Virus record (IMG/VR): IMGVR_UViG_2740892422_000003
Span: 1-18,880 of that record
Direction: 5' to 3' (one strand)
Length of the DNA stretch: 18,880 nucleotides
Source of the DNA: a virus
Lineage: Duplodnaviria; Heunggongvirae; Uroviricota; Caudoviricetes
The notes beneath the pieces are model-generated. The model was not told the origin of the DNA, searched no databases, and was given only the letters and a program-made list of their open reading frames with translations. Position 1 is the first letter of the stretch; each line of letters starts with the position of its first letter. Positions 1 to 15,319 of this stretch are shown piece by piece. The position numbers were made by a program, and so were the translations under genes.

Positions 1-50
1 TTGGTGGAGCTGGCGGGAGTTGAACCCGCGTCCGAAATTCCTACATCCTC
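1..50 (-). repeat. Left att direct repeat: 50-nt copy of the 3' end of the tmRNA gene ssrA, antisense on the + strand (displaced partial copy)
   Basis: Bases 1-50 are identical to 18831-18880. The reverse complement reads GAGGATGTAGGAATTTCGGACGCGGGTTCAACTCCCGCCAGCTCCACCA, the T-arm and acceptor CCA end of the tRNA-like domain of tmRNA. Sequence from 51 onward is AT-rich island DNA, not ssrA body. Confidence 0.85.
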
Positions 51-129: not shown

Positions 130-1143
130 CTAACACTCTGCATGGACATTTTGTGGATCTTTTTTGCTGATTTTTAACTTAATGAACTGAGGAACGCTTG
201 CGTCAATTGTAGTGTGATATTGAAATAAGGGGGATTTTCTATCACGATTATTGATTGAATAACTTATTATATCCTTCATAAGTAGCACAAAGTCAGTGGT
301 GAAATTATATTCAAGTATCTCAACCATTTTTAAATGAAAGTGCCAGTATGATTGTAGATATTTTTTTATATCCAATTCATCCGAAAATTTTGTTTTTAAG
401 AATAAAATATATTCATCTTCACCGTGGGTTGAGCACTGATAGAGTTTTTCAATATCTAAACGCTTTAGTCCATAAAGGTTGTGCAATAATTCTAATAGTT
501 TTTCAATGCTATGTATATGGGTGTATAACTCTGTATAGTCATTAATTTCTTCTTTTTTAAATAGTTCAACTAGTTGGCACCAAATTAATTCTGCATTTTG
601 TATGTAGTCCTTGGAAGCATCAAAATTATTATTAGTAGTTGAAGCATAAGGATAGCATTTACGATATGTAGAATAACAATTTTCAAATTCTAATTTTGCG
701 TTCTTTTTTATCAAAGGAATGTCTAAAGATTCAAGATGTTGTAATGCTTCTATAGTGTTTTTTCTATGGGTATAGAAAAAATCCACTTTGTTTTTCTTTT
801 CTGCTTCTTTGATTTGTTTATCTGTTTGTATTGTTCGATGAATATTATTGACAACTACTCCCAGTGGAATCGATAAAGATAAAACAGCTAAAGGAAGTTT
901 ACTAATGTTTAGGAAATTATTAAATCCTTCCGTATCGATTTGAACATTGTGACCATTCCATGCAACAAATCCGAGCAGAAAAAAACTAATTATTGGAATT
1001 GCCAGTGCGGCTTTGAATAATGGTTGATGCGTAAGAGGTTCAGCATTCATCTTGAATGCATTTATCTTGAATAAATAACCCATGTAAACAACCACAAATA
1101 AAATGTTAAATAAAACGATGCATTGATTGATTGTAAGGTTCAT
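130..1143 (-). CDS. Hypothetical membrane-anchored protein (337 aa), low-GC cargo gene directly downstream of the integrase
   Basis: Long ORF with hydrophobic N-terminal segments (CIVLFNILFVVVYMGYLF, LFKAALAIPIISFFLLGFVAW, LPLAVLSLSIPLGVVV) followed by a roughly 250-aa soluble domain rich in K/E/Y/N. Same strand as int with a 6-nt gap. Much more AT-rich than the phage core. No family recognised. Confidence 0.7.
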   Translation of the reverse strand: MNLTINQCIVLFNILFVVVYMGYLFKINAFKMNAEPLTHQPLFKAALAIPIISFFLLGFVAWNGHNVQIDTEGFNNFLNISKLPLAVLSLSIPLGVVVNNIHRTIQTDKQIKEAEKKNKVDFFYTHRKNTIEALQHLESLDIPLIKKNAKLEFENCYSTYRKCYPYASTTNNNFDASKDYIQNAELIWCQLVELFKKEEINDYTELYTHIHSIEKLLELLHNLYGLKRLDIEKLYQCSTHGEDEYILFLKTKFSDELDIKKYLQSYWHFHLKMVEILEYNFTTDFVLLMKDIISYSINNRDRKSPLFQYHTTIDASVPQFIKLKISKKDPQNVHAEC

Positions 1144-1149
1144 TTTTCT

Positions 1150-2163
1150 CTAAATTATTAATGATAAAGGATTTTTTGTTATTACATCTTCAAGATGCGT
1201 TGGCGCAAAGTGAGCATAGATCATAGTCATTTTTATATCTGAATGGCCTAAAATCTCTTTAAGAACAAGTATGTTTCCGCCATTCATCATAAAGTGGCTG
1301 GCAAATGTATGTCGTAATACATGTGTACACTGGCCTTCAGGCAGTACAATCCCCGCTTTAGCTACAGTACGCTCGAAAGTTTTACGGCACGGGGCAAACA
1401 ATTGGCCTCGTTTTTTTGGTATCTCGTTATAAAGCTCTTTTGAGATAGGTATAGAACGTACCTTTCTACTTTTCGTATTTTTGTAAGTGATACGGTATGG
1501 CGTAACTTGAGAGCCTTCTAGATTTTCCGCTTCACTCCACCTTGCACCGGTAGCAAGGCAAATCTTAGTGATGATGAGAACGTGCGGGCTATTAGATTCG
1601 GATAAATATTGTAAAAGAGTTTTGATTTCTTCTGAATAAAGAAAAGAAACCATTTTTTCATCAACTTTAAAGGTTGGAATTCCTGCCAATGGATTTGGAA
1701 GCGACCAATGGCCTAGTTTTTTTAGTGTACCAAATACGGCAGATAGATAGCGTTGCTCATGATTTACTGTCCGTGGTTGTATCGGCATACAACGTCCATT
1801 TATATCCGGAATTTCACCCTTTAAGCGACCTTCTCTGTATTGGCTGAAATCCGCCGCTGTGATTTGTGCTGCAATCGGATTTCCCATACCAGCACAAATA
1901 CCTTTCAATTTCGACATCATGCGGTCGGCATCTGCTAATGTTCGACCATATAGATCATGCCACTGCTCAATCAGATCTGATAAGCGTCGATTATCTTGCT
2001 TCTCACCCAGCCAGGGTTTGCCTTCCATTTCGCTGGCGATATATTTTTCATATGCCAGTGCTTCACCTTTCGTGGCGAATTTTTTACGAATACGCTTACC
2101 TTTCACCCCATTAGGGCGAAGATCGCACAACCATTCACCGCTTTCGATTTTCCGAACTGCCAT
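1150..2163 (-). CDS. int: Tyrosine site-specific integrase (P2/186 Int-like)
   Basis: 337-aa ORF. The C-terminal region carries tyrosine-recombinase signatures (HVLRHTFASHF and LGHSDIKMTMIYAHF with the catalytic Tyr). It lies next to the att repeat and the CI gene abuts it, as in P2/186. Confidence 0.93.
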   Translation of the reverse strand: MAVRKIESGEWLCDLRPNGVKGKRIRKKFATKGEALAYEKYIASEMEGKPWLGEKQDNRRLSDLIEQWHDLYGRTLADADRMMSKLKGICAGMGNPIAAQITAADFSQYREGRLKGEIPDINGRCMPIQPRTVNHEQRYLSAVFGTLKKLGHWSLPNPLAGIPTFKVDEKMVSFLYSEEIKTLLQYLSESNSPHVLIITKICLATGARWSEAENLEGSQVTPYRITYKNTKSRKVRSIPISKELYNEIPKKRGQLFAPCRKTFERTVAKAGIVLPEGQCTHVLRHTFASHFMMNGGNILVLKEILGHSDIKMTMIYAHFAPTHLEDVITKNPLSLII

Positions 2164-2738
2164 TACTCACTCACTAAGTATGTGGCCACAACCTTCCCAA
2201 TCAATTGCACATCAGATACGTCGCAATCAACTGGATATTTTCCCCAGTCAATCCGCAATTTGTTACCAGGAAGTAACGTCAATTCTTTGATGCTTTTCGT
2301 ACCAGAATACTCAAGAAGGAACTTACCGTCCGTAACAGGGTAATCAGCGATATCTACGAAAAATCTCACTGAACTATCACTGATTATTTGAAGTTCACCT
2401 TTGTAGTTGGGGAGTATTGTCTTATCGAAAATTACGGATGCTTGGCGAACCATATCAGACCCTTCGATTTTATAGGCTGAGATTCGAGTGGTATCACTTG
2501 CCACCTGATCAAATCTAACGCCATCACCAGTGGTTAGCCAGTAGATAGAAGCTCCTGTTTCTAGAGCACAAAGTAGTACTAAATCAGCAGGAAAGTTGTC
2601 ACGCATGATACGTGTACTTAAAGCACTTGGAGACATTCCAAGATAATTTGCTAACTGCATTCTGGATGTAAAACCATAAGCCTCACACACCCTTTCGATT
2701 GCTTCGCGTGCACCTGTCTTGATGTTGTAAGTTGTCAT
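2163..2738 (-). CDS. cI: CI-type immunity repressor (phage 186 CI-like), about 191 aa from the internal ATG
   Basis: Sequence from the internal Met (MTTYNIKTGAREAIERVCEAYGFTSRMQLANYLGMSPSALSTRIMRDNFPADLVLLCALETGASIYWLTTGDG) has an N-terminal HTH-like region and the size of 186 CI. Its stop overlaps the int start by 1 nt. The track ORF extends to 2852, but that 38-codon extension overlaps the operator/promoter region, so the ATG at 2736-2738 is preferred. Confidence 0.8.
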   Translation of the reverse strand: MTTYNIKTGAREAIERVCEAYGFTSRMQLANYLGMSPSALSTRIMRDNFPADLVLLCALETGASIYWLTTGDGVRFDQVASDTTRISAYKIEGSDMVRQASVIFDKTILPNYKGELQIISDSSVRFFVDIADYPVTDGKFLLEYSGTKSIKELTLLPGNKLRIDWGKYPVDCDVSDVQLIGKVVATYLVSE

Positions 2739-2889
2739 GTTTGTAGTTCGCAACTGTTGACAAACGACAATTTTAAAAATAATCTCTGAATTGTTTCGAA
2801 TGTAGATATTGATAATTGTCGTTTGTAGATTATTAACAACTATTGTCACCAACGCTCATTAGTGACAAACGAATGAGGAATTTTGCCGT
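2739..2889. promoter_or_regulatory. Lysis-lysogeny switch region with repeated operator-like motifs and a rightward promoter
   Basis: Between divergent cI and the early operon. An 8-9 bp motif GTTTGTAG / GACAAACG occurs in both orientations at about 2739-2746, 2757-2767, 2817-2828 and 2864-2871. A TTGACA (2757-2762), 17-nt spacer, TAATCT (2780-2785) arrangement is a sigma70-like promoter pointing toward the early operon. Confidence 0.55.
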
Positions 2890-3078
2890 ATGCAAACTAA
2901 AGCTGCAACACATTCAGAAAGCAGGTGGGTACCTCTGAAAACGTTTTGCGACAGGGTTGAAATAAAACTGCGCACGGGACGTTACTGGGTACACACTGGC
3001 AAACTCAAAATCAAACCTAAAAGCAAACCGAAAGAACATGTGTTTGTAGATTGGCTTGCGTGGAACAGTGAAAAGTAA
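2890..3078 (+). CDS. Small basic DNA-binding protein, Cro/Apl/Cox-like (62 aa)
   Basis: First gene of the rightward early operon, divergent from cI. Small and basic (KLKIKPKSKPKEH). The call rests on synteny with 186 apl and P2 cox, not on recognised sequence similarity. Confidence 0.5.
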   Translation: MQTKAATHSESRWVPLKTFCDRVEIKLRTGRYWVHTGKLKIKPKSKPKEHVFVDWLAWNSEK

Positions 3079-3121
3079 TCATCACTTTTAGTGATTTTGA
3101 GATTGGGATGGAAGAAAAACA

Positions 3122-3625
3122 ATGTTTGATTACCAGACCTCTAAACATGCGCACTTTGATGCGGCTTGCCGAGCATTTGCAATTGAGCACAATCTTGAAG
3201 ATGTGGCCGCTGCCGTTGGTATGAGGCCGCAGATCCTGCGCAACAAACTGAACCCAGCACAACCGCACCGCCTGACCTGTGATGAGCTTTTGGCTATCAC
3301 GGATTACACCGAAGATGCGCGTTTGCTTGATGGAATGTTAGGTCAGATTAACTGCCTTCCATCCGTGCCGGTGAACAATGCCACAGAAGGCAACATGCAG
3401 TTGTGCGCACTGAGTGCCACAGCCTGTGTGGGCGCGATTGCTGGGGAAGCCGTATCAACTGGCCATATGACTGCCGCCCGCCGTACTCAAATTCTGGATC
3501 GTGCCCGCGATGCAATCCGTAGCTTATCCGTGCTGGCTTATACCGTTGAAAGCCGTATTCACTCTGCGCCTGTTCTGGCCGCTGCGGTGGATCTGGCCAC
3601 AACCAACGCCACCGGCCTGATGTGA
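3122..3625 (+). CDS. cII: CII-like phage regulatory protein (phage 186 CII family)
   Basis: 167 aa, beginning MFDYQTSKHAHFDAACRAFAIEHNLEDVAAAVGMRPQILRNKLNP, with a predicted HTH. Same position and size as 186 CII. Confidence 0.75.
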   Translation: MFDYQTSKHAHFDAACRAFAIEHNLEDVAAAVGMRPQILRNKLNPAQPHRLTCDELLAITDYTEDARLLDGMLGQINCLPSVPVNNATEGNMQLCALSATACVGAIAGEAVSTGHMTAARRTQILDRARDAIRSLSVLAYTVESRIHSAPVLAAAVDLATTNATGLM

Positions 3626-3634
3626 GGGAACACC

Positions 3635-3808
3635 ATGAAAGCGTTTGTCACTTACCTGAAAAAAGAATCACCAGACATGCAGTTGCCGAGTGGTTCAACG
3701 GGATGGATAGAACTTCCGAACGGTCAGCGCTGGAACCCTGGCCACATGTACAAATTCAATGGCCAGCAGCCGCGTCGCCCATGGTGGCGTCGTCTGATGG
3801 GGCTATAG
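3635..3808 (+). CDS. Small hypothetical early protein (57 aa), not in the ORF track
   Basis: ATG at 3635 is preceded by GAGGGAA about 7 nt upstream, immediately after the cII stop. Translation is MKAFVTYLKKESPDMQLPSGSTGWIELPNGQRWNPGHMYKFNGQQPRRPWWRRLMGL. The overlapping frame (track ORF 3622..) gives a W/P-rich sequence that looks like out-of-frame noise. Confidence 0.4.
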   Translation: MKAFVTYLKKESPDMQLPSGSTGWIELPNGQRWNPGHMYKFNGQQPRRPWWRRLMGL

Positions 3809-3816
3809 GGGGCGTT

Positions 3817-4245
3817 ATGGCGATTAGCCAGGAACAGCAAAAGCGCGGGTTGGAGCATTGTAAAAGAATGCGTCTTCAGATCAACCCAGCCTACAGCGAT
3901 GCGGGGGACTGGTGGGACAACTTGACACCAGAGTGGCGCGGCGTGGTGCTTCATGCTGCTGCTGTTACTTCAGGTGCCGGGGTATTTAAAGCCCACTTAA
4001 GCAAATGCTGCTGGCAGGAACTTTATGAACGTCTGGGATATCGGGACATGATTCAACTACGACGGGGTATTTCACGGGCGCGCTTAACGTTCGAAGGTTT
4101 CGGCAGTTTACGTGACAGCGATTTTTCAAAGCGCACCGCGAACCGCCCGATCAAAAAGGCACATCCAATTTATAGCAGTAGCGGGGTGCAGATGGTGATC
4201 GCGCCTCATATCGTCCATAAGTTCCAGCAACAGGGGAATCACTAA
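3817..4245 (+). CDS. Hypothetical early protein (142 aa)
   Basis: Internal ATG of the track ORF 3622..4245, preceded by a G-rich RBS-like run. Its stop overlaps the start of the next ORF (ATGA). The start is ambiguous; in-frame ATGs at 3703 and 3781 are alternatives. Confidence 0.5.
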   Translation: MAISQEQQKRGLEHCKRMRLQINPAYSDAGDWWDNLTPEWRGVVLHAAAVTSGAGVFKAHLSKCCWQELYERLGYRDMIQLRRGISRARLTFEGFGSLRDSDFSKRTANRPIKKAHPIYSSSGVQMVIAPHIVHKFQQQGNH

Positions 4246-4646
4246 TGACCATTATTTCCGTTGAGGGTAAATCGTTGGGGGCTGAACTGGCTGTGTGGGG
4301 TGTCCCGCATAATTACGCTGTAGCGTTTGCAGCGAAAAGCACCAGTAAGAATGGCCGCATCGCTTTGCATCCGTTCTTCTTCAATGACACCGAGCACATG
4401 ACGAATCCGCGTCACTGGCTGGCGATCAATGCCGCTTTCTGGTGTTGCGTGTATCGCGAAGCTGAAAGCAAAGAAGCCCAGATAGAAGCGCTGGCGGGGA
4501 TTCGTGCAATTTTCTATACAGCTGGGGCGCTGGGTGTTGGCGAGATAAAAGCGCTGATCCAGGAGTGGTGGCGGACAACCTATGAGCTTCACCTGATTCC
4601 GGCACCGAACTACTCAGCCGCTACAGTACAACCCACTTTTCACTAA
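4245..4646 (+). CDS. Hypothetical early protein (133 aa)
   Basis: ORF translationally coupled to the upstream gene. No family recognised. Confidence 0.6.
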   Translation: MTIISVEGKSLGAELAVWGVPHNYAVAFAAKSTSKNGRIALHPFFFNDTEHMTNPRHWLAINAAFWCCVYREAESKEAQIEALAGIRAIFYTAGALGVGEIKALIQEWWRTTYELHLIPAPNYSAATVQPTFH

Positions 4647-4713
4647 TTAACAGCCTGAATTTTTTGGCCACGGTTCAAGTGGCCGGGGATTCTTTTGCCT
4701 TAAGGAAACCAAA

Positions 4714-4947
4714 ATGCACATGACACGTCAGGATTTACCCGCAACAAAATCAGGCACCGACCTGCTGGCCATGCTCACCAAAGCCACGCAGGAAGGTAAA
4801 GCCGCAGCTGCTGATCTGTGTTCCACACGTCTGGATAAGCTGGCCACCCATGCAGCCAATGAAGGTTTAAGCGCAGCGGAAATCGTTGAGTTAATCCGCG
4901 AAGAAGCCGCAGCGATTTGCAGCAAAGGCGGTGCGGCATGGCAATAA
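4714..4947 (+). CDS. Hypothetical small protein (77 aa), Ala-rich
   Basis: ATG preceded by AAGGAAA. Its 3' end overlaps the dam start. Confidence 0.5.
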   Translation: MHMTRQDLPATKSGTDLLAMLTKATQEGKAAAADLCSTRLDKLATHAANEGLSAAEIVELIREEAAAICSKGGAAWQ

Positions 4948-5798
4948 AAACTCCGCTTAAATGGGTGGGCAGCAAAGCCCGCCTTATGCCTAAGCTGCGT
5001 CCGCACCTTCCTGAAGGTAAACGCCTGGTTGAACCGTTCGCAGGTTCCTGCGCCGTCATGATGAATACGGATTATGACGATTATCTGATCGCAGATGTGA
5101 ATCCTGATCTGGTTAATCTTTATAAGGCGATGGCGTATCACACTGATGTGCTGCTGAATGAGCTGGAGAGCCTGTTTACTGCCGGTTCGTTAGGTGATGA
5201 AGAAAGCCGTGCCGTTTTCTATTACGCCGTGCGTGATGCTTTCAATCTTTCTGGTGGTAAGGCCGGTTCTGAATCTGTTGAAAATGCTGCGCGTTTCCTG
5301 TACCTGAATCGCCACTGTTTCAATGGCCTGTGCCGGTATAACCGCCGAGGCCAGTTCAACGTCCCGTTCGGTAAGTACAAAAAGCCTTATTTCCCCGCTG
5401 ATGAAATCCGCGCTTTTGCTGAAAAAGCGAAACGCGCAACGTTCATTACTGCCCACTATTCAGAAACGCTCGATTTGGTTCGGGACGGGAATGACGTTGT
5501 TTACTGTGATCCACCTTATCTGACTGAAAGCGATAATTTCACCGCTTACTATGGGCTCGGTTTTTCGCACATGGATCAGGGGAGGCTGGCGCGTAAGTTG
5601 CGCCGTCTGGCCAGAAAAGGCGTGCCGGTTGTGGCCTCTAATGCCGATCTGGAAATGGTGCATTACCTGTACGCCGGATTTGAAGCCGTTCGCATTAATG
5701 CCCCGCGTAGTGTTGGTGCCGCAGCTGCAAGCCAGAAAGTTGCTGCAGAGTTAATTCTGAAGTCGCCGCTTGATTCTATAGCGATGGCCTGCGCATGA
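4938..5798 (+). CDS. dam: DNA adenine methyltransferase (Dam-like, GATC N6-adenine MTase family)
   Basis: Motif I LKWVGSK, HLPEGKRLVEPFAGSCAVMMNTDYDDYLIADVNPDLVNLY, FLYLNRHCFNGLCRYNRRGQFNVPFGKYKKPYFP and catalytic DPPY (VVYCDPPYL) align closely with E. coli Dam as I recall it. Start set at the internal ATG (MAIKTPLKW); the track start at 4917 is an alternative. Confidence 0.9.
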   Translation: MAIKTPLKWVGSKARLMPKLRPHLPEGKRLVEPFAGSCAVMMNTDYDDYLIADVNPDLVNLYKAMAYHTDVLLNELESLFTAGSLGDEESRAVFYYAVRDAFNLSGGKAGSESVENAARFLYLNRHCFNGLCRYNRRGQFNVPFGKYKKPYFPADEIRAFAEKAKRATFITAHYSETLDLVRDGNDVVYCDPPYLTESDNFTAYYGLGFSHMDQGRLARKLRRLARKGVPVVASNADLEMVHYLYAGFEAVRINAPRSVGAAAASQKVAAELILKSPLDSIAMACA

Positions 5799-7816
5799 CT
5801 CCTGTCGCAAATGGCCAACATCATGCCGTCGATACCTGGCGGCGTGAAACGTTCGCACCGGGTACGCCTACAGACGCCACGATCACCGAGCGCCGCCTGT
5901 GGGCGGTTAATCCGCAGGATTACGAATGGCGCTCACAGTACCTGCATGAGATACCCGACTGGTTAGCCGGGTATTTTGGCCGTCGTTACGAAAAGCTTTT
6001 TTCTGGCCGTGACGGGCGTCGCCGTGCCAATACATTCCTGCGCAAAACAATCGGTGAGAATGTATTGCCACGTCTGCGCAAAGTGGCTGCGCGTTACTCG
6101 CTGGCCGCTGATGCTGCTGATCTTCCTTTTGGTAAGTCGCTGGAGCGCTTGCCGTCACTAGACCGTCCTGATCTTAAAAAACTGGCTGGCCAGGTATCTG
6201 GTTGGATTTCCCAGTCACTTTATGACTTCACCGAACAGTTTGATTCCGGCACTGACGATGCCAGAGAGCTGCATCGCCGCACCCTGGAATCTTACCGCCA
6301 TCTTTGTGCCTGTTGCCTGATGCTGAATAACCAGCCGCCGTACTGGACTGAACATGAGGCCAATGAAGGTCAACTGGAAATGCGTAAGGCGGAATCCGGG
6401 ATACTGCGCATGATGGCGCCGGAATGGTGGTACCTGCGTCTTAAACGTGCGCGTGATACGAAGCGCGAGCACATGGCCATTGCGGTGGGACAGGTGCAAA
6501 AAGCGGCCAGCGCTTATGTATCCCGCAAAACACTGGGCGAATGGATAGACCAGAAAAAGCGGAATCTGGAGTTCTTTAAAAAGTTTGATCTGCTGAATGA
6601 TGAGGGGCTGCGCATTGCACTGGACAGCCTGGTGCACCGCAGCGTTGCAAATCCGGCGATCCGTCGATGTGAACTAATGGTAAGAATGCGAGGGTTTGAA
6701 GATATGGCCAATGAAGAAGGACTGGCCGGTGAGTTTTACACCATCACCGCGCCATCACGTTTCCACGCAGTGCACAGCAAAGGTGGCTTTGTATCGCAAT
6801 GGGATGGATGTACGCCGCAGGATACCCAGCGCTATTTATGCGGCATATGGGCAAAAGCACGCGCAGCGATCTCGCGTGCGGGTATTCATGTATTTGGGTT
6901 TCGGGTTGTTGAGCCTCACCATGACGGGACACCGCACTGGCATATGTTGCTTTTTATGCGTCCGCATGACGTGGACACGGTACGCGATATTCTTTGCTAT
7001 CACGCCAGAATTACCGATTCTGAAGAACTGCAATCTGAAAAGGCGCTGAAGGCGCGTTTTCATGTTGAAGCGATCGATCCCGCCAAAGGTTCGGCCACGG
7101 GCTACATCGCGAAATACATTTCAAAAAATATTGATGGTTTTGCGCTGGATGGTGAGCAGGACGAAGAAACCGGCGAAAACCTGCGTGATATGGCTAAGTC
7201 CGTTTCCGCGTGGGCTTCACGCTGGCGTATTCGCCAGTTTCAGCAGATTGGTGGTGCGCCGGTAACTGTCTGGCGTGAGCTGCGTCGGTTGCGGGATCAG
7301 GTGCTGACCGATCGCAGAATGGATGCGGTTCTGGCCGCTGCTGATGTCGGTGACTGGGCTGCATATACCCAGGCGCAGGGCGGTGCACTGGTTGCCCGCC
7401 GTGATCTGGTTGTTCGTCTGGCCTATGAAATTACGGAACAGGGCAACGAGTACGCAGAGGACGTACAGCGCGTACAGGGGGTTTATTCTCCTTTAGTTCC
7501 TGATTCAGAAGTTTGCACCCGTCTGGTTAAGTGGCAAAAGGTTGCGAAGTTGGCCGAAGCGCCAGCGGAGGCGGGGTTTTCTGGCGGCAACGCCGCCCCT
7601 TGGAGTTCTGTCAATAACTGTACGGAGGGGGGAGCCCGCAGACGGTTAAAACTGGAATTACGCAGTCGGGGTTTTGAGGGTTCCGATGAAGAAATAGCCA
7701 TTCTCCTGCGGGGTAGTGGTTTGAGATTCGGTCAAGGGGCGCTGATTTACCGTAATGGGCGGCTTAAAGAGACTCAAAACGAGCCATTACAGGAGCTGTG
7801 GCCGGGGTGGGTGTAG
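5795..7816 (+). CDS. Rolling-circle replication initiation protein (P2 gpA / 186 A-like)
   Basis: 673 aa. Contains an HUH-type motif (HHDGTPHWHMLLF) and a downstream tyrosine motif (GYIAKYISKN) typical of P2 A-family nickases. Sits after the early regulatory genes as in P2/186. Start overlaps the dam stop (ATGA). Confidence 0.88.
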   Translation: MTPVANGQHHAVDTWRRETFAPGTPTDATITERRLWAVNPQDYEWRSQYLHEIPDWLAGYFGRRYEKLFSGRDGRRRANTFLRKTIGENVLPRLRKVAARYSLAADAADLPFGKSLERLPSLDRPDLKKLAGQVSGWISQSLYDFTEQFDSGTDDARELHRRTLESYRHLCACCLMLNNQPPYWTEHEANEGQLEMRKAESGILRMMAPEWWYLRLKRARDTKREHMAIAVGQVQKAASAYVSRKTLGEWIDQKKRNLEFFKKFDLLNDEGLRIALDSLVHRSVANPAIRRCELMVRMRGFEDMANEEGLAGEFYTITAPSRFHAVHSKGGFVSQWDGCTPQDTQRYLCGIWAKARAAISRAGIHVFGFRVVEPHHDGTPHWHMLLFMRPHDVDTVRDILCYHARITDSEELQSEKALKARFHVEAIDPAKGSATGYIAKYISKNIDGFALDGEQDEETGENLRDMAKSVSAWASRWRIRQFQQIGGAPVTVWRELRRLRDQVLTDRRMDAVLAAADVGDWAAYTQAQGGALVARRDLVVRLAYEITEQGNEYAEDVQRVQGVYSPLVPDSEVCTRLVKWQKVAKLAEAPAEAGFSGGNAAPWSSVNNCTEGGARRRLKLELRSRGFEGSDEEIAILLRGSGLRFGQGALIYRNGRLKETQNEPLQELWPGWV

Positions 7817-7896
7817 TTGTGTAAGTATGTGAAAGGCATTCATTTGTCAGTAGATGGCAGGAAAAAGCACTTTCACATTTTGTGCTTAAATGTATA

Positions 7897-7912
7897 CTGT
7901 GTTTATATACAG
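7897..7912. promoter_or_regulatory. LexA (SOS) box, CTGT-N8-ACAG
   Basis: CTGTGTTTATATACAG is a perfect match to the CTGT-N8-ACAG LexA consensus with an AT-rich centre. It overlaps candidate -10 elements (TATACT about 7893-7898, TATATA about 7904-7909). Confidence 0.7.
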
Positions 7913-7931
7913 TTATTCTGTTTTTGGGAGG

Positions 7932-8150
7932 ATGCTTGTGCAGGATTTGTTTTTGGAAACTATCGCATTGCAGCGGATTGCGTTGTTTACAAGGCTTATA
8001 GCTAAAAGTAATTGCACCGGCTGTGAGAAAGACATAGCACTTGCCTGGCTGAGCGAACTGACTTCAGATCTGGAAAGTAAGCTCGATGAGTATGAGAACA
8101 AAACCCCCAGTAATGGGGGCATTTCAGGCGGCGGGAGTCGCTTTCAGTAG
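7932..8150 (+). CDS. Small LexA-controlled ORF (72 aa), positional analogue of a Tum-like SOS antirepressor
   Basis: ATG at 7932 immediately follows GGGAGG and lies about 20 nt downstream of the LexA box. Translation begins MLVQDLFLETIALQRIALFTRLIAKSNCTGCEKD. Its 3' end overlaps the convergent ogr-like gene by about 27 nt. No sequence similarity to Tum recognised. Confidence 0.35.
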   Translation: MLVQDLFLETIALQRIALFTRLIAKSNCTGCEKDIALAWLSELTSDLESKLDEYENKTPSNGGISGGGSRFQ

Positions 8151-8447
8151 GTCTAATGCCATCTGGCGCTGATCGGGTGAAAGTGCATTCAGTATTTTTT
8201 GCACCATCGCATCACCCGTTTTAGCGCTGGGGCTGAGAGTGTGGGAGAACGTCAGATTCATAACAAACGTATGGCCACACTCAACATCTGAACAGGCGCA
8301 GTAAATATCCGCAATTTGCCGGTGCTTCCTGTTCGTTTTACGAATAACAGCCTTTGAGCCGCATTCCGGGCATTCGATTTTCAGAACTCGCATATTCCAT
8401 GCTCCAGCTGTTAAATGATGCCTGGATTTTAGCCTGTTTCGCCTCAT
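8124..8447 (-). CDS. ogr: Ogr/Delta-family zinc-finger late transcription activator
   Basis: Contains CPECGSKAVIRKTNRKHRQIADIYCACSDVECGHTF, matching the Cys4 pattern of P2 Ogr / 186 B (CPxC ... YxQCxNxxCxxTF). The track start overlaps the portal stop (ATGA); an internal Met (MRVLKIECPECG) directly before the zinc finger is an alternative start. Confidence 0.8.
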   Translation of the reverse strand: MRRNRLKSRHHLTAGAWNMRVLKIECPECGSKAVIRKTNRKHRQIADIYCACSDVECGHTFVMNLTFSHTLSPSAKTGDAMVQKILNALSPDQRQMALDLLKATPAA

Positions 8448-9505
8448 GCCGCACCCTTATCCGTTGATTCTGTGTAACTTAAATCAAAGTTAAGGTGTAG
8501 CCTTTCCGGTATTTCGGGATCGTTGTTAACGGCCAGCATGAAACGGCGCTGGATGGGGGCTATTTCGCTTTTCTTGTAAATGCGTTCAGCCTTTTCAACA
8601 TCCCCCAGTCCGGCAGTGTTCTGCGGGACAATACCGGCGAGGCCAGCAGGGAAACGGTGCGCGTTCAGAATGTCCTGGGCGCTGATGTTTTTGATGTTGG
8701 CAAATTCATCCTTCGCGGAAATATCCCCCATTTCAATGAATTTGATTGCGTCACCGTCTCCACCAGGAATGTTTACAAGGATGGTGGAGAAGTTACCGAT
8801 CCCTTTGCTGTCACGCAGCTGCTGTTCAATTTCTTCCTCCATTTCGTCCGTCATGCTGGGATCGCGGGTATAAAGAATACCGCCAGTGTGCGCACCGTTG
8901 TGGTAATAGCGGCGTCGGAAAATGACCGCTTCACTGTTTAGTAACGCGGAATGCACGCCGCCGATGTAGTCCGGCAGTCCGTAGATATGCTGTTGCGGGT
9001 CATACATTTTGATGAAGATAATATCTTCTTCTGGCCATACCTGCGGTTCTCCTTCCTGTAACACCACGTAGTCACCGGGCTTATCCTGGGCGTTATCTCT
9101 GACTTTGCGGCGGCGAATATACAGACCGGGCAAGGGTTCAAGTGCGATCACGTCGCCCCAGCCGTTACGAATTTTGGCAATTGCAATATCCCCAAAGGTT
9201 ATATAGTCAAACGCTGCCGCTTCCAGCTGGTCGTGAATAAGCCCGCCCCCCTGGTAGTCTGAAACAATCATGTTTTTGCGGGCGTGAATGATGCCGCCGT
9301 GCTGACCGTTAAGATTAATCAGCTGTGCGAGTGCCAGCCGGTCAATCGGCTGGGTGAAGTGATCGGCGGCATTGTCGTACCAGATATCACGATAATCTGT
9401 GCCGGTAGTCAGAACCGGTTCAGGTTTGCCGAATGTGATAATGCTCATCTTTTTTGATTTGTCGCCGCGCTGGTCGCGCTTAACAAAGCGTTTCTTTTTA
9501 CTCAT
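8444..9505 (-). CDS. Capsid portal protein (P2 gpQ-like)
   Basis: 353 aa, same size and position as P2 Q (downstream of and overlapping the terminase gene, divergent from scaffold/capsid genes). Basic N-terminus (MSKKKRFVKRDQRGDKSKK). Confidence 0.8.
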   Translation of the reverse strand: MSKKKRFVKRDQRGDKSKKMSIITFGKPEPVLTTGTDYRDIWYDNAADHFTQPIDRLALAQLINLNGQHGGIIHARKNMIVSDYQGGGLIHDQLEAAAFDYITFGDIAIAKIRNGWGDVIALEPLPGLYIRRRKVRDNAQDKPGDYVVLQEGEPQVWPEEDIIFIKMYDPQQHIYGLPDYIGGVHSALLNSEAVIFRRRYYHNGAHTGGILYTRDPSMTDEMEEEIEQQLRDSKGIGNFSTILVNIPGGDGDAIKFIEMGDISAKDEFANIKNISAQDILNAHRFPAGLAGIVPQNTAGLGDVEKAERIYKKSEIAPIQRRFMLAVNNDPEIPERLHLNFDLSYTESTDKGAA

Positions 9506-11277
9506 GCTGCCTCTTTCCTTACACCCCAGCGGGATTTAGGTTTGTTTTCATAGTTAAGGGGTTCGTTATGCAGACCGTGGGTAATCGCCCAGAACGCCTC
9601 CGCGTGGCCAGTATCCTGGCTGCGGTCAGCGACAAACGTCATGGCGTTGCCGCTTTGTGTGGTGGTTCGGCGCACAGACATAAAGCTGGCCGCGATCTCT
9701 TTCAGGTTTTTATCCCACTCAATACGCTGGCTTTCCACCACGTCCACCGCTTTCAGTACCAGTTGATTTTTAGTGTTCAGGTCGTAACGAATAGGGACGG
9801 CCACGCGCATGGCAAAATGCTGAATGTTGTCAAAAACACCCTGGCCAATGCCGGTAACGTCCACCCCCAGATAAGTGAAGTTGTATTTTTTGAACAACTG
9901 CTCGATCTGTTTTGCCTGATACCGGAAGTTCATGCCTTTCCAGTAAATCACCTTCAGAACGCGGAACTTCTCCACGGCGAGCATCGGTGGAGCGATGATG
10001 ACAAAACAGGACAAATCACCGCTGCGAGCCGGGTCAAAGCCACCCCATACAGGTCTGTCACCGAATGGCCGCGCTGCATCAGGATTGTGATCCTGCCAGG
10101 TGTCGATTTCAACGCCGCAGGCTTCCAGATCGGAAAAGCTGAAAACGGAATCTTTGCTGTCAACGAACACGCACATATAGAGCATGTTAAAAGTGGCGTC
10201 GTTGTAGCGGTTGCGAAGTTTCTCGATGTTCGCCAGGTTGAAACCGCCCGCAATGGCATCTTCCATCGTAATGACGTAGCGCCATTGCCCATCCGGGCAG
10301 AGTCGCCCACCGTCACGCATTTCGTTAAAGGAAGGAAACTTAATGGCCGCACGTTTTTTACTGCCCTGTTTCCACTCATCGCCCGTCCAGAACGGGTACG
10401 CCTGGTGCGTTTTTGCCGATGGCGTTGAAAAATAGGTGGTACGCCACTTGTCATGCGTGGCCATTGCGCTGGCCACTTCGTTAAGTTTTGCAAAGTTTGG
10501 TACCCAGAAATATTCGTCACAGTACAGGTGGCCGCTGTAGGACTGGGCGGTGTTTTTGTTGGTGGAGAGAAAACGCAGTTCTGCGCCGTTGCTTAAGCGG
10601 ATCGGGTTGCCGGTCAGCGTAATACCGAAATACTGCTCTGCAATATTCACGATGTAAGACCGGAACACTTCAGCCTGAGCCTTTGACGCTGACAGAAAGA
10701 TTTGCGGATCGCCGGTCATCACCGCGTTTTCAAACGCTTCAAACGCAAAATACCAGGTTGCACCGATCTGGCGGCTTTTCAGGATGTTCCTGACAAGCTG
10801 GCCAATGTTATTGCGCAGGTGTTTCTGATATTCAAAAAGATGTTCCTCAGCCCATGCGTCAAAGTCCTCCTGCGTCAGCGAGGTAATATCGTTTTTCTTG
10901 TACTTCCGTTTGCTGCGCGGTTCGTCGTCATTGTTGTCCCGTGCAGTTGCTTGCCCGGAACTCTGACCGCTGGCCATTTTCTCTTTATGTTTATTACTCT
11001 GCGCACGCAGTTTGGTGGCATGAGTAATGAGCATGTCCATTTCTTTCAGGTCGAGATCGGTTTTGTTATCGCGGCTGGCCAGCAGCTGGTAACGGCGTTC
11101 AATCGCTTCCTCTGTGCTTTCAAAACTGAGCAAATCCGCCCAGCTGTATTTCTCCGCCCAGTAGTAAACGATCCGCGCATTCGGCAGATTTAATTCAGAT
11201 GCGATTTCCTTTGGCGTATAGCGGCGCAGATAAAGTGCGCGAACAACGCCTTTTAATTCTTCAGAGTATTTAGCCAT
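9502..11277 (-). CDS. Terminase large (ATPase) subunit (P2 gpP-like)
   Basis: 591 aa (P2 P is about 590 aa). Divergent from the scaffold gene across a short control region and followed by the portal gene with a 4-nt overlap, as in the P2 head module. Confidence 0.82.
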   Translation of the reverse strand: MAKYSEELKGVVRALYLRRYTPKEIASELNLPNARIVYYWAEKYSWADLLSFESTEEAIERRYQLLASRDNKTDLDLKEMDMLITHATKLRAQSNKHKEKMASGQSSGQATARDNNDDEPRSKRKYKKNDITSLTQEDFDAWAEEHLFEYQKHLRNNIGQLVRNILKSRQIGATWYFAFEAFENAVMTGDPQIFLSASKAQAEVFRSYIVNIAEQYFGITLTGNPIRLSNGAELRFLSTNKNTAQSYSGHLYCDEYFWVPNFAKLNEVASAMATHDKWRTTYFSTPSAKTHQAYPFWTGDEWKQGSKKRAAIKFPSFNEMRDGGRLCPDGQWRYVITMEDAIAGGFNLANIEKLRNRYNDATFNMLYMCVFVDSKDSVFSFSDLEACGVEIDTWQDHNPDAARPFGDRPVWGGFDPARSGDLSCFVIIAPPMLAVEKFRVLKVIYWKGMNFRYQAKQIEQLFKKYNFTYLGVDVTGIGQGVFDNIQHFAMRVAVPIRYDLNTKNQLVLKAVDVVESQRIEWDKNLKEIAASFMSVRRTTTQSGNAMTFVADRSQDTGHAEAFWAITHGLHNEPLNYENKPKSRWGVRKEAA

Positions 11278-11437
11278 GCGGATAATTATGCCGTGGCTGT
11301 GATGAAAAAACGGTGGTGTTAATTCGTGTCCGTTCGGTAAAGCGTTATAACCGAACTGTTCAGAATAAAGCGTAATGCAGTGGCGGTTTTATTTGGCAAT
11401 AATTGATTTGCAGCGTCAGGGAGTGGAACAGGGGGAT
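11278..11437. promoter_or_regulatory. Divergent late-promoter region between terminase (leftward) and scaffold (rightward) genes, containing a dyad symmetry element
   Basis: Inverted repeat GTTCGGT-N11-ACCGAAC at about 11332-11356, embedded in TGTCCGTTCGG...CCGAACTGTTCAG. It lies between two divergently starting late operons, where P2-type late promoters carry the activator-binding dyad. Confidence 0.5.
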
Positions 11438-12241
11438 ATGTCACATTTAAAAACTGACTGGCTGTGTGTTGCTACTGAAGGGGATACCGTTGACGGCAGG
11501 GTAATTAAACGGCAGTGGATCATTGATATGGGGGAAACCTATGACTATAGCCACTATGTCGCTTTAATCTGGCCAGAACATGAGGATGATTGCGGAAATT
11601 TTGGTGAAGTGCTGGAAGCCACCTGGAATGATGGTGAAGATGGACTGGCACGGTTATATGTCAGCCTTTGCCCGAATATGCGTCTGATTTTCGCAAATCA
11701 TGAAGATCAGCTTTTGTTCTTCTCCATTGAGCCGGAAGAAAACTGGCGCGGTAGCGGGCGTACTTACCTGAAAGGGCTGGCGGTAACAGATACACCTGCC
11801 AGCGTTGGCACCACACGGCTGCGCTTTAGTAGTCGGCGCAATAAATTAACAAAGCAGGGATATTACAGCTGTGTAATTTCCCATGACGGAAAAATTAAAC
11901 AGGAAGCAAGAATGAAGAACTGGCAGAAACTGTTTGGTCTTAAACCAAAGTTTGAAGATGAAACGCCGCAGGATAATCCTGCCCCGGATGAAGATAAATT
12001 ACAGGCGCTTGCCAATGTGGTTAACGATCTGGAAGCGCGTGTGGCGAAAATTGAAACTCAACTGAATGACGTTCAGGGTGATGTTGACACAATCGCTGAA
12101 GTGGTGGATACGCAGGAATTTGCGGCAATTCGCGATAATGCAAAAGAAATCGTAACCCGCTTTAACGATTTGGGTAATAAAAACCCCCGTACACCGGGGC
12201 GTACTATTAAAGATAAAGCCGGGAAATTTAATTTCCTGTAA
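11438..12241 (+). CDS. Capsid scaffolding protein (P2 gpO-like)
   Basis: Internal ATG preceded by AGGGGGA. N-terminal VATEGDTVDGRVIKRQWIIDMGETYD resembles the P2 O N-terminus (GVEGDTCDGRVI...) as I recall it, and YLKGLAVTDTPASVGTTRLRF resembles the conserved gpO protease-like segment. The track ORF begins 63 nt upstream at 11375. Confidence 0.8.
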   Translation: MSHLKTDWLCVATEGDTVDGRVIKRQWIIDMGETYDYSHYVALIWPEHEDDCGNFGEVLEATWNDGEDGLARLYVSLCPNMRLIFANHEDQLLFFSIEPEENWRGSGRTYLKGLAVTDTPASVGTTRLRFSSRRNKLTKQGYYSCVISHDGKIKQEARMKNWQKLFGLKPKFEDETPQDNPAPDEDKLQALANVVNDLEARVAKIETQLNDVQGDVDTIAEVVDTQEFAAIRDNAKEIVTRFNDLGNKNPRTPGRTIKDKAGKFNFL

Positions 12242-12303
12242 TTCGCTTTATTGCTGATTAGTCCAGAACATATTTTTAAATCGCTTAATTGCGAGGGAGT
12301 TTT

Positions 12304-13326
12304 ATGCACCTTAATAATCGTGCGCGGGATTTACTGGATAAATATTCGGCGGGGATGGCGCAGCAGTTTGGTGCGCGTGATACCAGTCGATATTTTTCCC
12401 TGAATGACCCGCAGGAAAATGCGCTGCGTCTTGCGTTGCTGGAATCCGTCGAGTTCCTGAACATGATCACCTGTCTGGATGTTGACCAGCTGAGTGGCCA
12501 GGTGATCTCTGTCGGTTCTTCCGTGCTGCATACCGGCCGCAGCGAAAATGGCCGTTTTATTCGTCAGGTAGGCGTTGACGGTAATGACTATTCCCTGGTT
12601 GAAACAGACAGCTGCGCCGCACTGCGCTGGGATCTGCTTTCTGTCTGGGCAAACGCCGGTAAGGACGAAAACGAATTTTACAACCTGGTACAGGCATTCA
12701 CCACGCAGGCTTTTGCGCTGGACATGTTGCGCATTGGTTTCAATGGTAAGAGCCGGGCGAAAACCACTGATCCGGTAGCAAACCCGAACGGTGAAGATGT
12801 GAACATCGGCTGGCATGAGCGTATGAAAACGCTGCTGGGCGGCAATCAGATTATGACGGATGCCGTGGTGCTTGATGAGGCCGGGGATTACAAGTCACTG
12901 GATGCAATGGCGTCCGATCTGATTAACGCCAAAATCCCGGCGCAGTTCCGCAATGACCCGCGTCTGGTTGTCCTGGTCGGTGCCGATCTGGTCGCTGCTG
13001 AACAGTACCGACTGTATCAGGCGGCAGACCGTCCGACTGAAAAAATTGCTGCGCAGATGCTGGGAAGTACCATTGCTGGCCGTCAGGCCATTATCCCGCC
13101 GTTTATGCCGGGTAAACGCATGGTGGTTACGCCGCTTTCTAACCTGCACATCTACACCCAGCGCAATACCCGTATGCGTAAGGCGGAGTTTGTTGAAGAT
13201 CGTAAGCAGTTCGAAAACAAATACCTGCGCAATGAAGGTTACGCGGTGGAAGTGCCGGAGCTGTATGCGGCCATTGATGAATCCGCAGTGACGATCGGCA
13301 AAGTCTCCGAACCGGTGGAGGGCTGA
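12304..13326 (+). CDS. Major capsid protein (P2 gpN-like)
   Basis: About 340 aa from the ATG preceded by GAGGGAG. Segments FNGKSRAKTTDPVANPNGEDVNIGWHE and GDYKSLDAMASDLIN resemble recalled P2 N sequence. Directly follows the scaffold gene. Confidence 0.85.
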   Translation: MHLNNRARDLLDKYSAGMAQQFGARDTSRYFSLNDPQENALRLALLESVEFLNMITCLDVDQLSGQVISVGSSVLHTGRSENGRFIRQVGVDGNDYSLVETDSCAALRWDLLSVWANAGKDENEFYNLVQAFTTQAFALDMLRIGFNGKSRAKTTDPVANPNGEDVNIGWHERMKTLLGGNQIMTDAVVLDEAGDYKSLDAMASDLINAKIPAQFRNDPRLVVLVGADLVAAEQYRLYQAADRPTEKIAAQMLGSTIAGRQAIIPPFMPGKRMVVTPLSNLHIYTQRNTRMRKAEFVEDRKQFENKYLRNEGYAVEVPELYAAIDESAVTIGKVSEPVEG

Positions 13327-13329
13327 TAA

Positions 13330-15222
13330 ATGGCACTTTCCCCCGCGCAGCGTCACAGCCAGCGCATTGCGATGGAACAAAAGCTGAAACGCAGCCAGGC
13401 ACTGGAAACCACGGAAAGTATGCACCTGCTGATCAGGGCGTTGGAAACAGATGTGGAACACGTTCGAAGTCTGCCTACCATCGCCGATCGCGTCGAGTAT
13501 AAACGCGATGTGCTGTTAATGATGAAACCAGTAAAACGCCTTTACCTTTCAACGGATGAAGTTCACCTGGTGGATGCCAGCCTGGTACTGGAGCTGAACA
13601 GCTGCGGCCGGGGCTTCATCACCGCAGAGACAACAACCGATTACACCGGAAAACTGGTGCGGCTGGATGTGGGGTATACCGATCTGCTTTTGCGCTGGTT
13701 TACGGGGTATGTGGAGCGATCACAGCCCGCAGAAAACGGTTTTCAGCGTCTGTTCATTCGTGAGCTGGCAGGTGTGTTTGAAAGGATGTGGCCGTGTTCG
13801 TTTCAACACCCGACTTTGCGAGAAATTGCGGGCTGGCTGGAAGAAAACAGCGGGATCACAGTCAGTGTGCCTGATGCACAGTACAGCGATACCCCCATCC
13901 CACATTTTACCCATAACGGTACTGGTTATCAGTTGCTGAACAATCTGGGCAGGGCGTTCAGTATCCAGGATTACATCTGGTACCAGTTGCCTGATGGTTC
14001 GCTTTACGTCGGCGGCGCAGAAAAATCATTGTTTGCCGGTCGTCCCGTAGAAATCCCGTCAGAGTTCAGCCAGGGGGCTGCTGGCGGTAACTCTGTGACA
14101 TTACCAGTGATCCAGACTATGCGGCCAGGGGTGGAGATGAACGGTGAACGCGTGACTAAAGTTCACCTGACGAATGACACGATGGCGATCACATGGACGC
14201 CGAGAAACCGCGCAACGGGTAAACCTTTGCAGAAAACACCGGCGCAACGGCAGATTGAAAGCCATTACCCGGAACTGGCATCCGGGCTTCATTTGCCAAA
14301 GATGGCCAGAGTCGTGGCGCATTCAGAGCCAGTAAAAAGCGGTAACTTTGCCGATCCCTTCCGGCCACGTTACGCAGTGGACGTGCAGCTGCTTGACGCA
14401 GACGGAAACCCGGACAATCAGACGCCTGTTTACTCAGCGGTGCCGCTGCCGGTGCCAATGGCCGGGAATGATTCAGGTATGTTTCAGTTCCCGCCAGAAG
14501 GGACGCTGGTTGAGGTTGCATTCACGGGAGGCAGACCGGATAAACCCTTTATCAGGCAGACGCTGCCGGATGGTACCAGCCTGCCGGACGTTAAACCCGG
14601 TGAGCAATTGCAGCAGCAGCGGGAAGAAGTTTCCCAGCGGGTGACTCAGGCAGGAGACTGGGTAAGACAGACCGATCAGACCATCAGTGAAACATCGATG
14701 GTGCGAACGGTAAAGGCCGATACGGAACAGCGCGAACTGGTCAGCCGTGAAACCACGGTGAAAGCCACGGATAAAACTACGGTACTGGGAACCGCCACAC
14801 TGCTGGCCGGAGCTATTCAGCAGGTAAGCGCCGGTGATTATAGCCAGGCGGTGAAAGGTAACAGACTGGCCAGTATTGAAGGAAACGAAGAAACGGACAT
14901 AGCAGGACAGCAGTCCACTAAAGTGGGCGGTGCTGTAGCCGTGGAGGTTGGCGAAAGCCTGACAGAGAAAATTGCCGCACTGCGTAAATCAGTGGCCGCT
15001 GGCGGTCAGCAGGTCATGGGGGCAACTGTCCATATTGGCAGTGAGAGTATCAACGCCCTGACCATGATGCTGGATACCATTGATTTACTGGCAGATCTGG
15101 CGCAGCAATGCGCGAGCCATTCGCACCCCACCGTTGGGACGCCAACCAATGCCGCCGCGTTCACACAGACGGCGACGAAAGCCGGGCAGACCCGGAGCAA
15201 GTACCAGGGGATCATTGCTTAA
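13330..15222 (+). CDS. Chimeric 630-aa protein: small-terminase-like N-terminus (gpM-like) joined to a baseplate central-spike-like C-terminus (gpV/gp5/VgrG-like OB fold plus His-containing apex)
   Basis: Starts 4 nt after the capsid gene stop, with GGAGGG upstream. The N-terminus MALSPAQRHSQRIAMEQ resembles the start of P2 gpM (MTSPAQRH..., from memory). The C-terminal half has an OB-fold spike signature (FQFPPEGTLVEVAFTGGRPDKPFI), a repetitive T/V/K-rich segment (TVKADTEQRELVSRETTVKATDKTTVLGTA) and an HxH element near the end (CASHSHPTVGTP). Confidence 0.6.
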   Translation: MALSPAQRHSQRIAMEQKLKRSQALETTESMHLLIRALETDVEHVRSLPTIADRVEYKRDVLLMMKPVKRLYLSTDEVHLVDASLVLELNSCGRGFITAETTTDYTGKLVRLDVGYTDLLLRWFTGYVERSQPAENGFQRLFIRELAGVFERMWPCSFQHPTLREIAGWLEENSGITVSVPDAQYSDTPIPHFTHNGTGYQLLNNLGRAFSIQDYIWYQLPDGSLYVGGAEKSLFAGRPVEIPSEFSQGAAGGNSVTLPVIQTMRPGVEMNGERVTKVHLTNDTMAITWTPRNRATGKPLQKTPAQRQIESHYPELASGLHLPKMARVVAHSEPVKSGNFADPFRPRYAVDVQLLDADGNPDNQTPVYSAVPLPVPMAGNDSGMFQFPPEGTLVEVAFTGGRPDKPFIRQTLPDGTSLPDVKPGEQLQQQREEVSQRVTQAGDWVRQTDQTISETSMVRTVKADTEQRELVSRETTVKATDKTTVLGTATLLAGAIQQVSAGDYSQAVKGNRLASIEGNEETDIAGQQSTKVGGAVAVEVGESLTEKIAALRKSVAAGGQQVMGATVHIGSESINALTMMLDTIDLLADLAQQCASHSHPTVGTPTNAAAFTQTATKAGQTRSKYQGIIA

Positions 15223-15319
15223 TGCTGGTATTCATGTGATAAGTTGAGACGTTCTGGACTTCCTGATGGCTGTAGCTCTGTTGTTGGGTAGCCCAGAAAA
15301 ATTCGAAATAAAATGGGTA

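Follow-up and report, generated by a model that had tools for sequence, protein, structure and literature searches.

Why an ogr/Delta-family zinc-finger gene should lie directly behind the portal gene in a P2-like prophage from which the tail operon has been removed is the question raised by this locus, when in phages P2 and 186 the corresponding gene follows tail gene D beside attP. The window, meaning the whole stretch of 18,880 nucleotides that was analysed, is the entire contig JRGC01000012.1 of assembly GCA_000754855.1. Both of its ends carry the same 50 bases, which correspond to the 3' end of tmRNA (positions 325-374 of Rfam RF00023) and identify the window as a prophage lying between ssrA attachment repeats. 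Identity of the region to the Peduoviridae phage ESSI2_ev040 is 95-98%, and its features are listed in Table 1. The reading argued here, to which a probability of about 0.85 is given, is that the gene is the ordinary late-gene activator of a P2-like prophage of the ESSI-2/K139/HP1 type and occupies the usual place of that lineage, as the last gene of a short late operon.

Table 1. Positions of genes and sequence elements in the window, in order along the contig.
Feature	Position	Strand	Basis
Integrase	1150-2163	minus	
CI-type repressor	2163-2852	minus	
186-like early operon, through Dam methylase and GPA replication protein	3122-7816	plus	
Small convergent ORF	7890-8150	plus	
Intrinsic terminator hairpin (GCCCCCATTACTGGGGGT then TTTGTT), beginning 3 nt past the ogr stop	8103-8120	minus	Terminator scan
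ogr/Delta-family zinc-finger gene, long form, 107 aa	8124-8447	minus	ORF list and translation
Short form, 89 aa, from M19 (MRVLKIECPEC...)	8124-8393	minus	100% identical to proteins of ESSI2_ev015, ev129 and S.Kent 1-2-1
Basic linker or N-terminal extension, 18 codons (MRRNRLKSRHHLTAGAWN)	8394-8447	minus	Lies between portal stop and M19
GGAG ribosome-binding site, 8 nt 5' of the M19 ATG	8402-8405	minus	Sequence read
TAAAAT hexamer in linker, candidate -10 without -35 for the short form	8426-8431	minus	Near-invariant nucleotides
Portal gene, P2 gpQ type	8444-9505	minus	Pfam Phage_portal, E 8e-18
GGGTG ribosome-binding-like motif, 4 nt 5' of the long-form ATG, in the last portal codons	8452-8456	minus	Alignment
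Terminase large subunit, P2 gpP type, first gene of the short late operon	9502-11277	minus	Pfam Terminase_6N, Terminase_6C, Terminase_5
CATAAT, -10-like, putative for the terminase operon, 56.5 nt from dyad centre	11285-11290	minus	
Exact dyad TTCGG-N13-CCGAA, mid-way between the divergent terminase and scaffold genes, proposed activator site	11333-11355	none	
GPO scaffold ORF, start probably 11438	11375-12241	plus	
AATAAT, -10-like, putative for the scaffold-capsid operon, 56.5 nt from dyad centre	11398-11403	plus	
P2-family capsid	12289-13326	plus	
Small-terminase codons 1-62 fused in frame to the complete last tail gene ('baseplate protein')	13330-15222	plus	BLAST, PHROG

The ogr open reading frame is intact, with 107 codons and an ATG start. 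Residues 25-71 of its product match the Ogr_Delta family (Pfam PF04606) over all 47 of the 47 model positions (E 9.2e-20), and residues 1-105 of the long form match PHROG 603, 'transcriptional regulator' (E 1.5e-44). A zinc motif, C-X2-C-X22-C-X4-C, is formed by C26, C29, C52 and C57 in long-form numbering, and these four cysteines are the sole invariant columns in an alignment with P2 Ogr, 186 B, both halves of P4 Delta, K139 orf13, phiO18P gp19, KS5 gp8, phi52237 gp20, YenM_324 and ev239. Identity in this alignment falls from 79% with ev239 to 65% with YenM_324, 53% with K139 orf13 and 18% with P2 Ogr. With K139 orf13 and the HP1 group of PHROG 603, the protein also shares a C-terminal SPSAKT segment. 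The neighbours of the gene are likewise of P2 type by Pfam (GPA replication protein, portal, terminase, GPO scaffold and P2-family capsid). Public records agree with this assignment: RefSeq WP_012602735.1, which has the same 324-nt long form, is named 'ogr/Delta-like zinc finger family protein', and the phage records of ESSI2_ev040 and ESSI-2 name the counterpart 'transcriptional regulator'. A sequence search of solved structures with the Ogr protein gave nothing significant (best E 0.76). Judged on its sequence, the protein fits the features that define the Ogr/Delta family and the portal-linked, K139-type subfamily within it.

The comparison with the best-known members of the family shows both likeness and difference. 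P2 Ogr and 186 B are also small proteins with the same cysteine arrangement, each encoded by the gene that closes a late operon, although the window protein is 17 residues longer than P2 Ogr at its C terminus. The same four cysteines occur in each half of P4 Delta. However, Delta, at 166 aa, is built as a tandem duplication, and its gene lies between sid and psu in a satellite, whereas the window protein has a single domain and belongs to a phage-derived element. The original prediction had named an Ogr/Delta-type activator that lies immediately 3' of the portal gene on the same strand, with an ATGA overlap and possibly an 18-residue N-terminal extension. This part of it has held throughout: the match to the full Pfam model is accompanied by alignment of all four cysteines with those of P2 Ogr, 186 B and P4 Delta, with no sign of non-conservation; the overlap is exact by coordinates, on the minus strand, which had gone unmentioned; and 18 codons separate the overlapping ATG from M19, the residue at which relatives start.

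Portal-side placement of the gene is shared with complete phages. At the nucleotide level, region 7700-9600 of the window shares 97.5-98.4% identity with ESSI2_ev040, ev015 and ev129, all of them complete tailed phages. The order in ESSI2_ev040 (terminase large subunit, portal and regulator, followed by a small opposite-strand ORF and the replication gene) is that of the window, and this phage is also complete in its small terminase, head-completion, tail and lysis genes. In this Quadragintavirus group the 89-aa form of the protein is 100% identical and the ATGA junction is the same; its members differ from the window in being complete phages, and the window prophage differs also in its integrase and its attachment site (ssrA). 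The order terminase-portal-ogr recurs in Cronobacter ESSI-2, ev239, Yersinia YenM_324, Salmonella SI7, K139, HP1, phiO18P, Pseudomonas phi3 and Pasteurella F108, and spans ten Peduoviridae genera. The K139 homolog, orf13, is annotated as 'zinc-finger protein' and lies 3' of the portal gene on the same strand, in an interval between portal and replication genes that has been described before (PMC8537503, 2021), while the HP1 counterpart is an unannotated ORF. When one genome is taken per species, 53 loci encode a relative, and a same-strand portal gene lies just 5' in 38 of them; in 37 of these 38 portal-linked loci, the portal gene ends 35-53 nt before the M19 codon. The position beside the portal is therefore the usual one in this branch of P2-like phages and is already on record, just as the gene and its family are already present in public phage annotations and in the literature.

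At its 3' end, the gene is followed after 3 nt by the intrinsic terminator, which makes ogr the last gene of a terminase-portal-ogr unit. The records of P2 and 186 show one terminator serving both ogr or B and the late tail operon, an arrangement with the same logic in a different operon. Since ogr closes a late operon, just ahead of the operon terminator, late transcription would feed back positively on synthesis of the activator. Downstream of ogr, similarity to the cos sites of P2 and 186 did not rise above chance.

The junction with the portal gene raises the further question of which protein is made. The ATG at 8447-8445 overlaps the portal stop TGA at 8446-8444 to give the exact ATGA, and a second ATG follows at 8393-8391 (M19), 18 codons further 3'. 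M19 is aligned with the MRV start of K139 orf13 and phiO18P gp19, and is the annotated start in ESSI2_ev040. Among the 38 portal-adjacent loci, 34 have an in-frame ATG that overlaps the end of the portal gene and is followed by 17-18 open codons; most of these overlap by 4 nt (ATGA), while several do so by 1 nt and a few by 19 nt. Of the exceptions, one has TTG as its upstream start, and two, L044 (ATA) and L065 (frameshift), have lost the upstream start and kept M19. The combination of start/stop overlap and 18-codon linker distinguishes the enterobacterial clade from K139, in which a small orf14 and an intergenic gap separate the portal gene from orf13 and no N-terminal linker is found. Homologs that are not linked to the portal gene in this way (K139, phiO18P and the Xenorhabdus tail-cluster copies) have no linker, which fits with the linker being a by-product of coupling.

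Whether the 18 codons are read as protein can be judged in part from how they vary. Over 30 distinct sequences, entropy at the three codon positions is 0.84, 0.83 and 1.12 in the linker, in comparison to 0.37, 0.15 and 1.19 in the zinc domain. Variability in the linker is thus highest at the third position, and this, together with the GGTG before the upstream ATG, suggests that the linker is translated under weak constraint. The GTG of the GGGTG motif is invariant in 19 aligned sequences while the surrounding 3' end of the portal gene varies. It may instead be that the 89-aa form alone is made and that the 18 codons are untranslated regulatory DNA left open by chance, a possible reading whose odds are somewhat short of even. 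Such a reading draws on the overlap of the most strongly conserved linker residues, L-K and G-A, with two motifs at the DNA level, TAAAAT and GGAG; TAAAAT is kept in 29 of the 30 distinct sequences despite codon changes (L/V/I, then S/Y/L/F), and the G-G of GGAG is conserved across relatives. The MRV start is also found in relatives beyond the enterobacterial clade and in the Xenorhabdus tail-cluster copies, M19 survives in both L044 and L065, and the short form is the one annotated in ESSI2_ev040, ev239 and SI7. The rest of the evidence tells against this reading: the overlapping ATG, the length of 17-18 codons, the lack of an in-frame stop and the GGTG are retained in 34 of 38 loci, in genera whose proteins are 60-100% identical, and a one-codon indel in ESSI-2 keeps the frame. 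The peak of variability at the third codon position and the annotation of the long form by RefSeq (WP_012602735.1) point in the same direction.

The favoured, though tentative, reading is that both starts are in use, the long form by coupling on late read-through and the short form from a weak promoter of its own. Through the ATGA overlap, ribosomes that end translation of the portal gene would restart on the 18-codon linker and yield the 107-aa form, and the internal ribosome-binding site and M19, located after TAAAAT, would yield the 89-aa form. A more elaborate version takes the linker as a switch between two forms, in which a weak early TAAAAT promoter lacking a -35 element gives 89 aa and late coupled read-through gives 107 aa with a basic N-terminal arm, acting at TTCGG-N13-CCGAA near -66 with a near-leaderless terminase mRNA; in this full form the proposal is rather unlikely. 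TAAAAT resembles a -10 element but is accompanied by no acceptable -35 element, and a scan for consensus sigma-70 promoters 5' of ogr gave no match. Comparison of the ogr upstream sequence with the repressor and early promoter region (2840-3130) found a single shared AT-rich 8-mer, consistent with chance, and a search for conserved RNA structure over the portal-ogr junction in 19 sequences predicted zero pairs.

The target of the activator is suggested by the sequence between the divergent late genes. P2 Ogr is a zinc-binding protein whose targets are inverted repeats with their centres near -55 at the late promoters (PMC3152322), and it activates via the alpha-subunit C-terminal domain of RNA polymerase (PMC3152322; rpoA109 suppressors, PMC11434276). 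By homology, the small zinc-binding protein of the window may bind an inverted repeat between divergent late promoters and recruit the host RNA polymerase through its alpha subunit. Its proposed site is the dyad TTCGG-N13-CCGAA, which occurs in exact form once in the window and once in ESSI2_ev040. The arms of this dyad are conserved and the spacer is variable in ev040, EcPF15, ESSI-2, YenM_324, ev239 and K139, and the HP1 copy is partial; in K139 it takes the form TTCGG-N14-CCGAA, 67 nt 5' of the terminase start. Copies with one mismatch number 3-5, against 3.8 expected, which is the level of chance, and a search for further dyads marking other late promoters or a site 5' of ogr returned chance-level one-mismatch matches only.

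Hexamers resembling a -10 element lie on both sides of the dyad, 55.5-58 nt from its centre, in all seven of the phages compared. From this spacing, the activator site is predicted to lie near -66, one helical turn beyond that of P2. The P2 record has one activator site, 55-56 nt from the divergent P and O transcription starts, so that in P2, as proposed for the window, one dyad is placed between divergent packaging and head promoters. The site itself differs, being of the TGT-N12-ACA type in P2 and 186; three such sequences occur in the window, none of them in the late intergenic region 11278-11437. A consensus sigma-70 scan of the terminase/scaffold region also gave no match. If the promoters are placed as predicted, transcription would begin at about 11277 for the terminase, approximately at its ATG, and at about 11410 for the scaffold, and a near-leaderless terminase mRNA is predicted in five of the seven phages. 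Small new details are the dyad, the conservation of the coupling linker and the symmetrical geometry of the promoters. The dyad, the geometry and the portal-ogr coupling constitute testable predictions for late control in phages of the HP1/K139/ESSI-2 type, though the interest of the linker, dyad and geometry is confined to specialists in P2-like phages, for whom neither the gene nor its position should come as a surprise.

An improbable alternative is that the protein is not the late activator but a zinc-ribbon protein with another role, such as restriction alleviation like that of Lar or general DNA binding. Weak Pfam matches below threshold to Lar_restr_allev (20.2 bits, cut-off 28.6) and to other zinc ribbons could be taken in this sense, yet Ogr_Delta scores 70.8 bits across its full model against a curated cut-off of 26.3, and the spacing of the cysteines is exactly that of Ogr, B and Delta. 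The identity of a mere 18% to P2 Ogr leaves more room for such a role, as does the lack of direct experiment on the K139-type Ogr subfamily, for which no experimental test was reported in the literature searched. However, the annotation of ESSI2_ev040 shows no second Ogr homolog, and the Xenorhabdus homologs head clusters made up of tail genes only, a position expected for an activator.

The absence of tail genes from the window is explained by a single deletion. In BLAST comparison with ESSI2_ev040, window 4938-13517 corresponds to 23374-14795 and window 13515-15234 to 1722-3, so that the window lacks 13,072 bp (ESSI2_ev040 1723-14794, which takes in gp02 through the greater part of gp21), and the two sides of the junction (13515-13517) share a 3-base microhomology. 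The complete gene set of an ESSI-2-like, Quadragintavirus-type phage is therefore absent, with small terminase, head-completion, tail and lysis genes lost. At the junction, a 630-aa fusion protein has been formed, in which residues 3-63 match PHROG 74 (small terminase) and residues 65-630 match PHROG 2258 (baseplate protein). With no small terminase, tail or lysis genes left, the activator cannot bring about virion production in this prophage.

It is very doubtful that the tail-less element is instead an evolved, capsid-forming satellite that keeps ogr to answer a helper phage or switch it on. Integrase, repressor, replication, ogr, portal, terminase large subunit, scaffold and capsid genes are all intact, which counts in favour of this idea, but the small terminase is destroyed and satellite-specific hijacking genes are lacking (no sid-, psu- or delta-like genes). 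The fusion protein was found on two contigs only, that of the window and one from another sequencing run, and the second occurrence lends the idea some weight; the junction nevertheless drew no hits in exact searches of 185,579 species-representative genomes and of IMG/VR, and it had no match among 5,426 complete E. coli genomes. Tail-less versions are also seen in EcPF15, which has a different tail deletion, and in strain 300709, where the span is shortened, but their junctions are not that of the window, a pattern of random prophage decay. Among complete E. coli genomes, 31 carry this type of prophage, and in about 28 of the 31 the flanks are approximately 13 kb apart, indicating that the prophage is complete in most carriers. 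The loss of the tail genes is ordinary prophage decay, separate from the position of ogr.

The original prediction had joined these two features, and here its correct identification was followed by an incorrect evolutionary inference. It rightly held that P2 ogr and 186 B stand at the end of the tail operon near att (the records place P2 ogr after D and before attP, and the position given for 186 B is also correct) and that the tail operon was removed from this element, and the physical coupling of ogr to the portal gene stands alongside the Ogr/Delta identity, whereas the relocation does not. Movement of ogr to the portal by the rearrangement that deleted the tail operon is refuted, even though the P2/186 activator does follow tail gene D and the window does lack all tail genes apart from the fused last one, because complete tailed phages that are 98% identical here have the same order and the same ATGA junction, the order extends over ten genera, and the deletion joins the small terminase to the last tail gene at a point on the opposite late arm, 5 kb distant from ogr, which it leaves untouched. 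The gene order at this locus should accordingly not be taken as a sign of a rearrangement tied to tail loss. Elsewhere in the family, the place of the gene again varies, with Ogr homologs encoded in the early operon of the Burkholderia phages KS5 and phi52237.

The window carries a 13,072-bp deletion: the head-completion and lysis genes are gone, only the last tail gene is left, and the small terminase gene is mostly missing. At the junction, the start of the small terminase gene now runs into the gene for a 'baseplate protein' as one fusion ORF (see table). The same fusion protein is found on one other contig, Logan ERR15942230. No match to the deletion junction was found among the species-representative genomes, in IMG/VR or among the complete genomes of E. 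coli. E. coli EcPF15 (NZ_CP054227.1) carries a tail-less version of this prophage type that arose independently. It sits elsewhere in the chromosome, with rcdA and ybjL on either side. Only the first 138 nt of its small terminase gene remain, and its two final tail genes are kept. In strain 300709, the span is shortened in a manner consistent with a further deletion.

Locations of features in the window and in related loci
Feature	Sequence	Coordinates	Strand	Description
Fusion ORF	Window	13330-15222		630 aa, in-frame; small terminase codons 1-62 joined to 'baseplate protein'
Deletion junction	Window	13515-13517		
Terminase/scaffold intergenic region	Window	11278-11437		
Small ORF	Window	7890-8150	+	Conserved; PHROG 698, unknown function
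ogr terminator hairpin	Window	8103-8120		
Identical 50-bp ends	Window	1-50, 18831-18880		
Accessory genes	Window	130-1143, 15320-15889, 16608-17780, 17924-18733		337-aa protein with hydrophobic N-terminal part (PHROG 17460); hexapeptide-repeat acetyltransferase; PIN_12-domain protein; Abi_C abortive-infection family protein
Tail-less derivative	EcPF15	16461-18975		
Ogr-like ORF	HP1 (U24159.1)	~3950-4220		Unannotated
Ogr homologue gp20	phi52237	3956-4249		
Ogr homologue and flanking genes	Enterobacterales MAG	219-5066		

The window represents an entire 18,880-bp contig (JRGC01000012.1) whose two 50-bp ends, identical to each other, match the 3' end of the tmRNA gene (ssrA); these ends are the attachment-site repeats of an ssrA-integrated prophage. 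Relative to ESSI2_ev040, the complete tailed Escherichia phage used as reference, the integrase shares only about 73% nucleotide identity. Accessory genes flank the attachment sites, and ESSI2_ev040 lacks counterparts of the PIN_12 gene and of the gene for the 337-aa protein.

Between the divergent terminase large-subunit and scaffold genes, -10-like hexamers are placed symmetrically about the centre of the TTCGG-N13-CCGAA dyad (the proposed activator site), 56.5 nt to each side. The terminase ATG coincides with the position at which transcription is predicted to start, and no ribosome-binding site precedes it, suggesting a leaderless mRNA for the terminase large subunit. This hexamer and ATG geometry recurs in ESSI2_ev040, EcPF15, ESSI-2, YenM_324 and K139, whereas in ev239 the terminase leader is 32 nt longer and carries a ribosome-binding site.

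Homologues of the Ogr/Delta-type activator are also present in other contexts. In HP1, an Ogr-like ORF lies just downstream of the portal gene, with the first C-X2-C pair (MARTTDIYCTVC) out of frame with the rest. This stems either from a mistake in the 1996 sequence or from a real frameshift in strain HP1c1. The gp20 gene of Burkholderia phage phi52237 does not adjoin a portal gene, yet the annotated protein has a basic stretch (MRPPRLRRMPPREFV) ahead of MRILNRC, an N-terminal extension that may be real or an annotation artefact. Short-form homologues (69-74% identical) occur in Xenorhabdus budapestensis, X. vietnamensis and X. sp. Sc-CR9, where they stand alone: the 2.5 kb upstream contain no portal gene, host genes flank them on that side, and tail genes follow (GpR tail completion, DUF2586 sheath-type protein, HP1 Orf24). 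They resemble tail-only, bacteriocin-like clusters in which the activator has been kept, the reverse of the situation in the window, a head-only remnant. A further homologue, 60% identical, from an uncultured Enterobacterales MAG is flanked by a DUF927/Toprim primase-like gene and by an AAA_21 ATPase and DUF3226 pair, a setting reminiscent not of a P2-like phage but of a P4-like satellite that carries a defence cassette.

Within the window, the small ORF is convergent with ogr, the two sharing the final 27 nt of ogr, and the ogr terminator hairpin falls inside the 3' end of this ORF.
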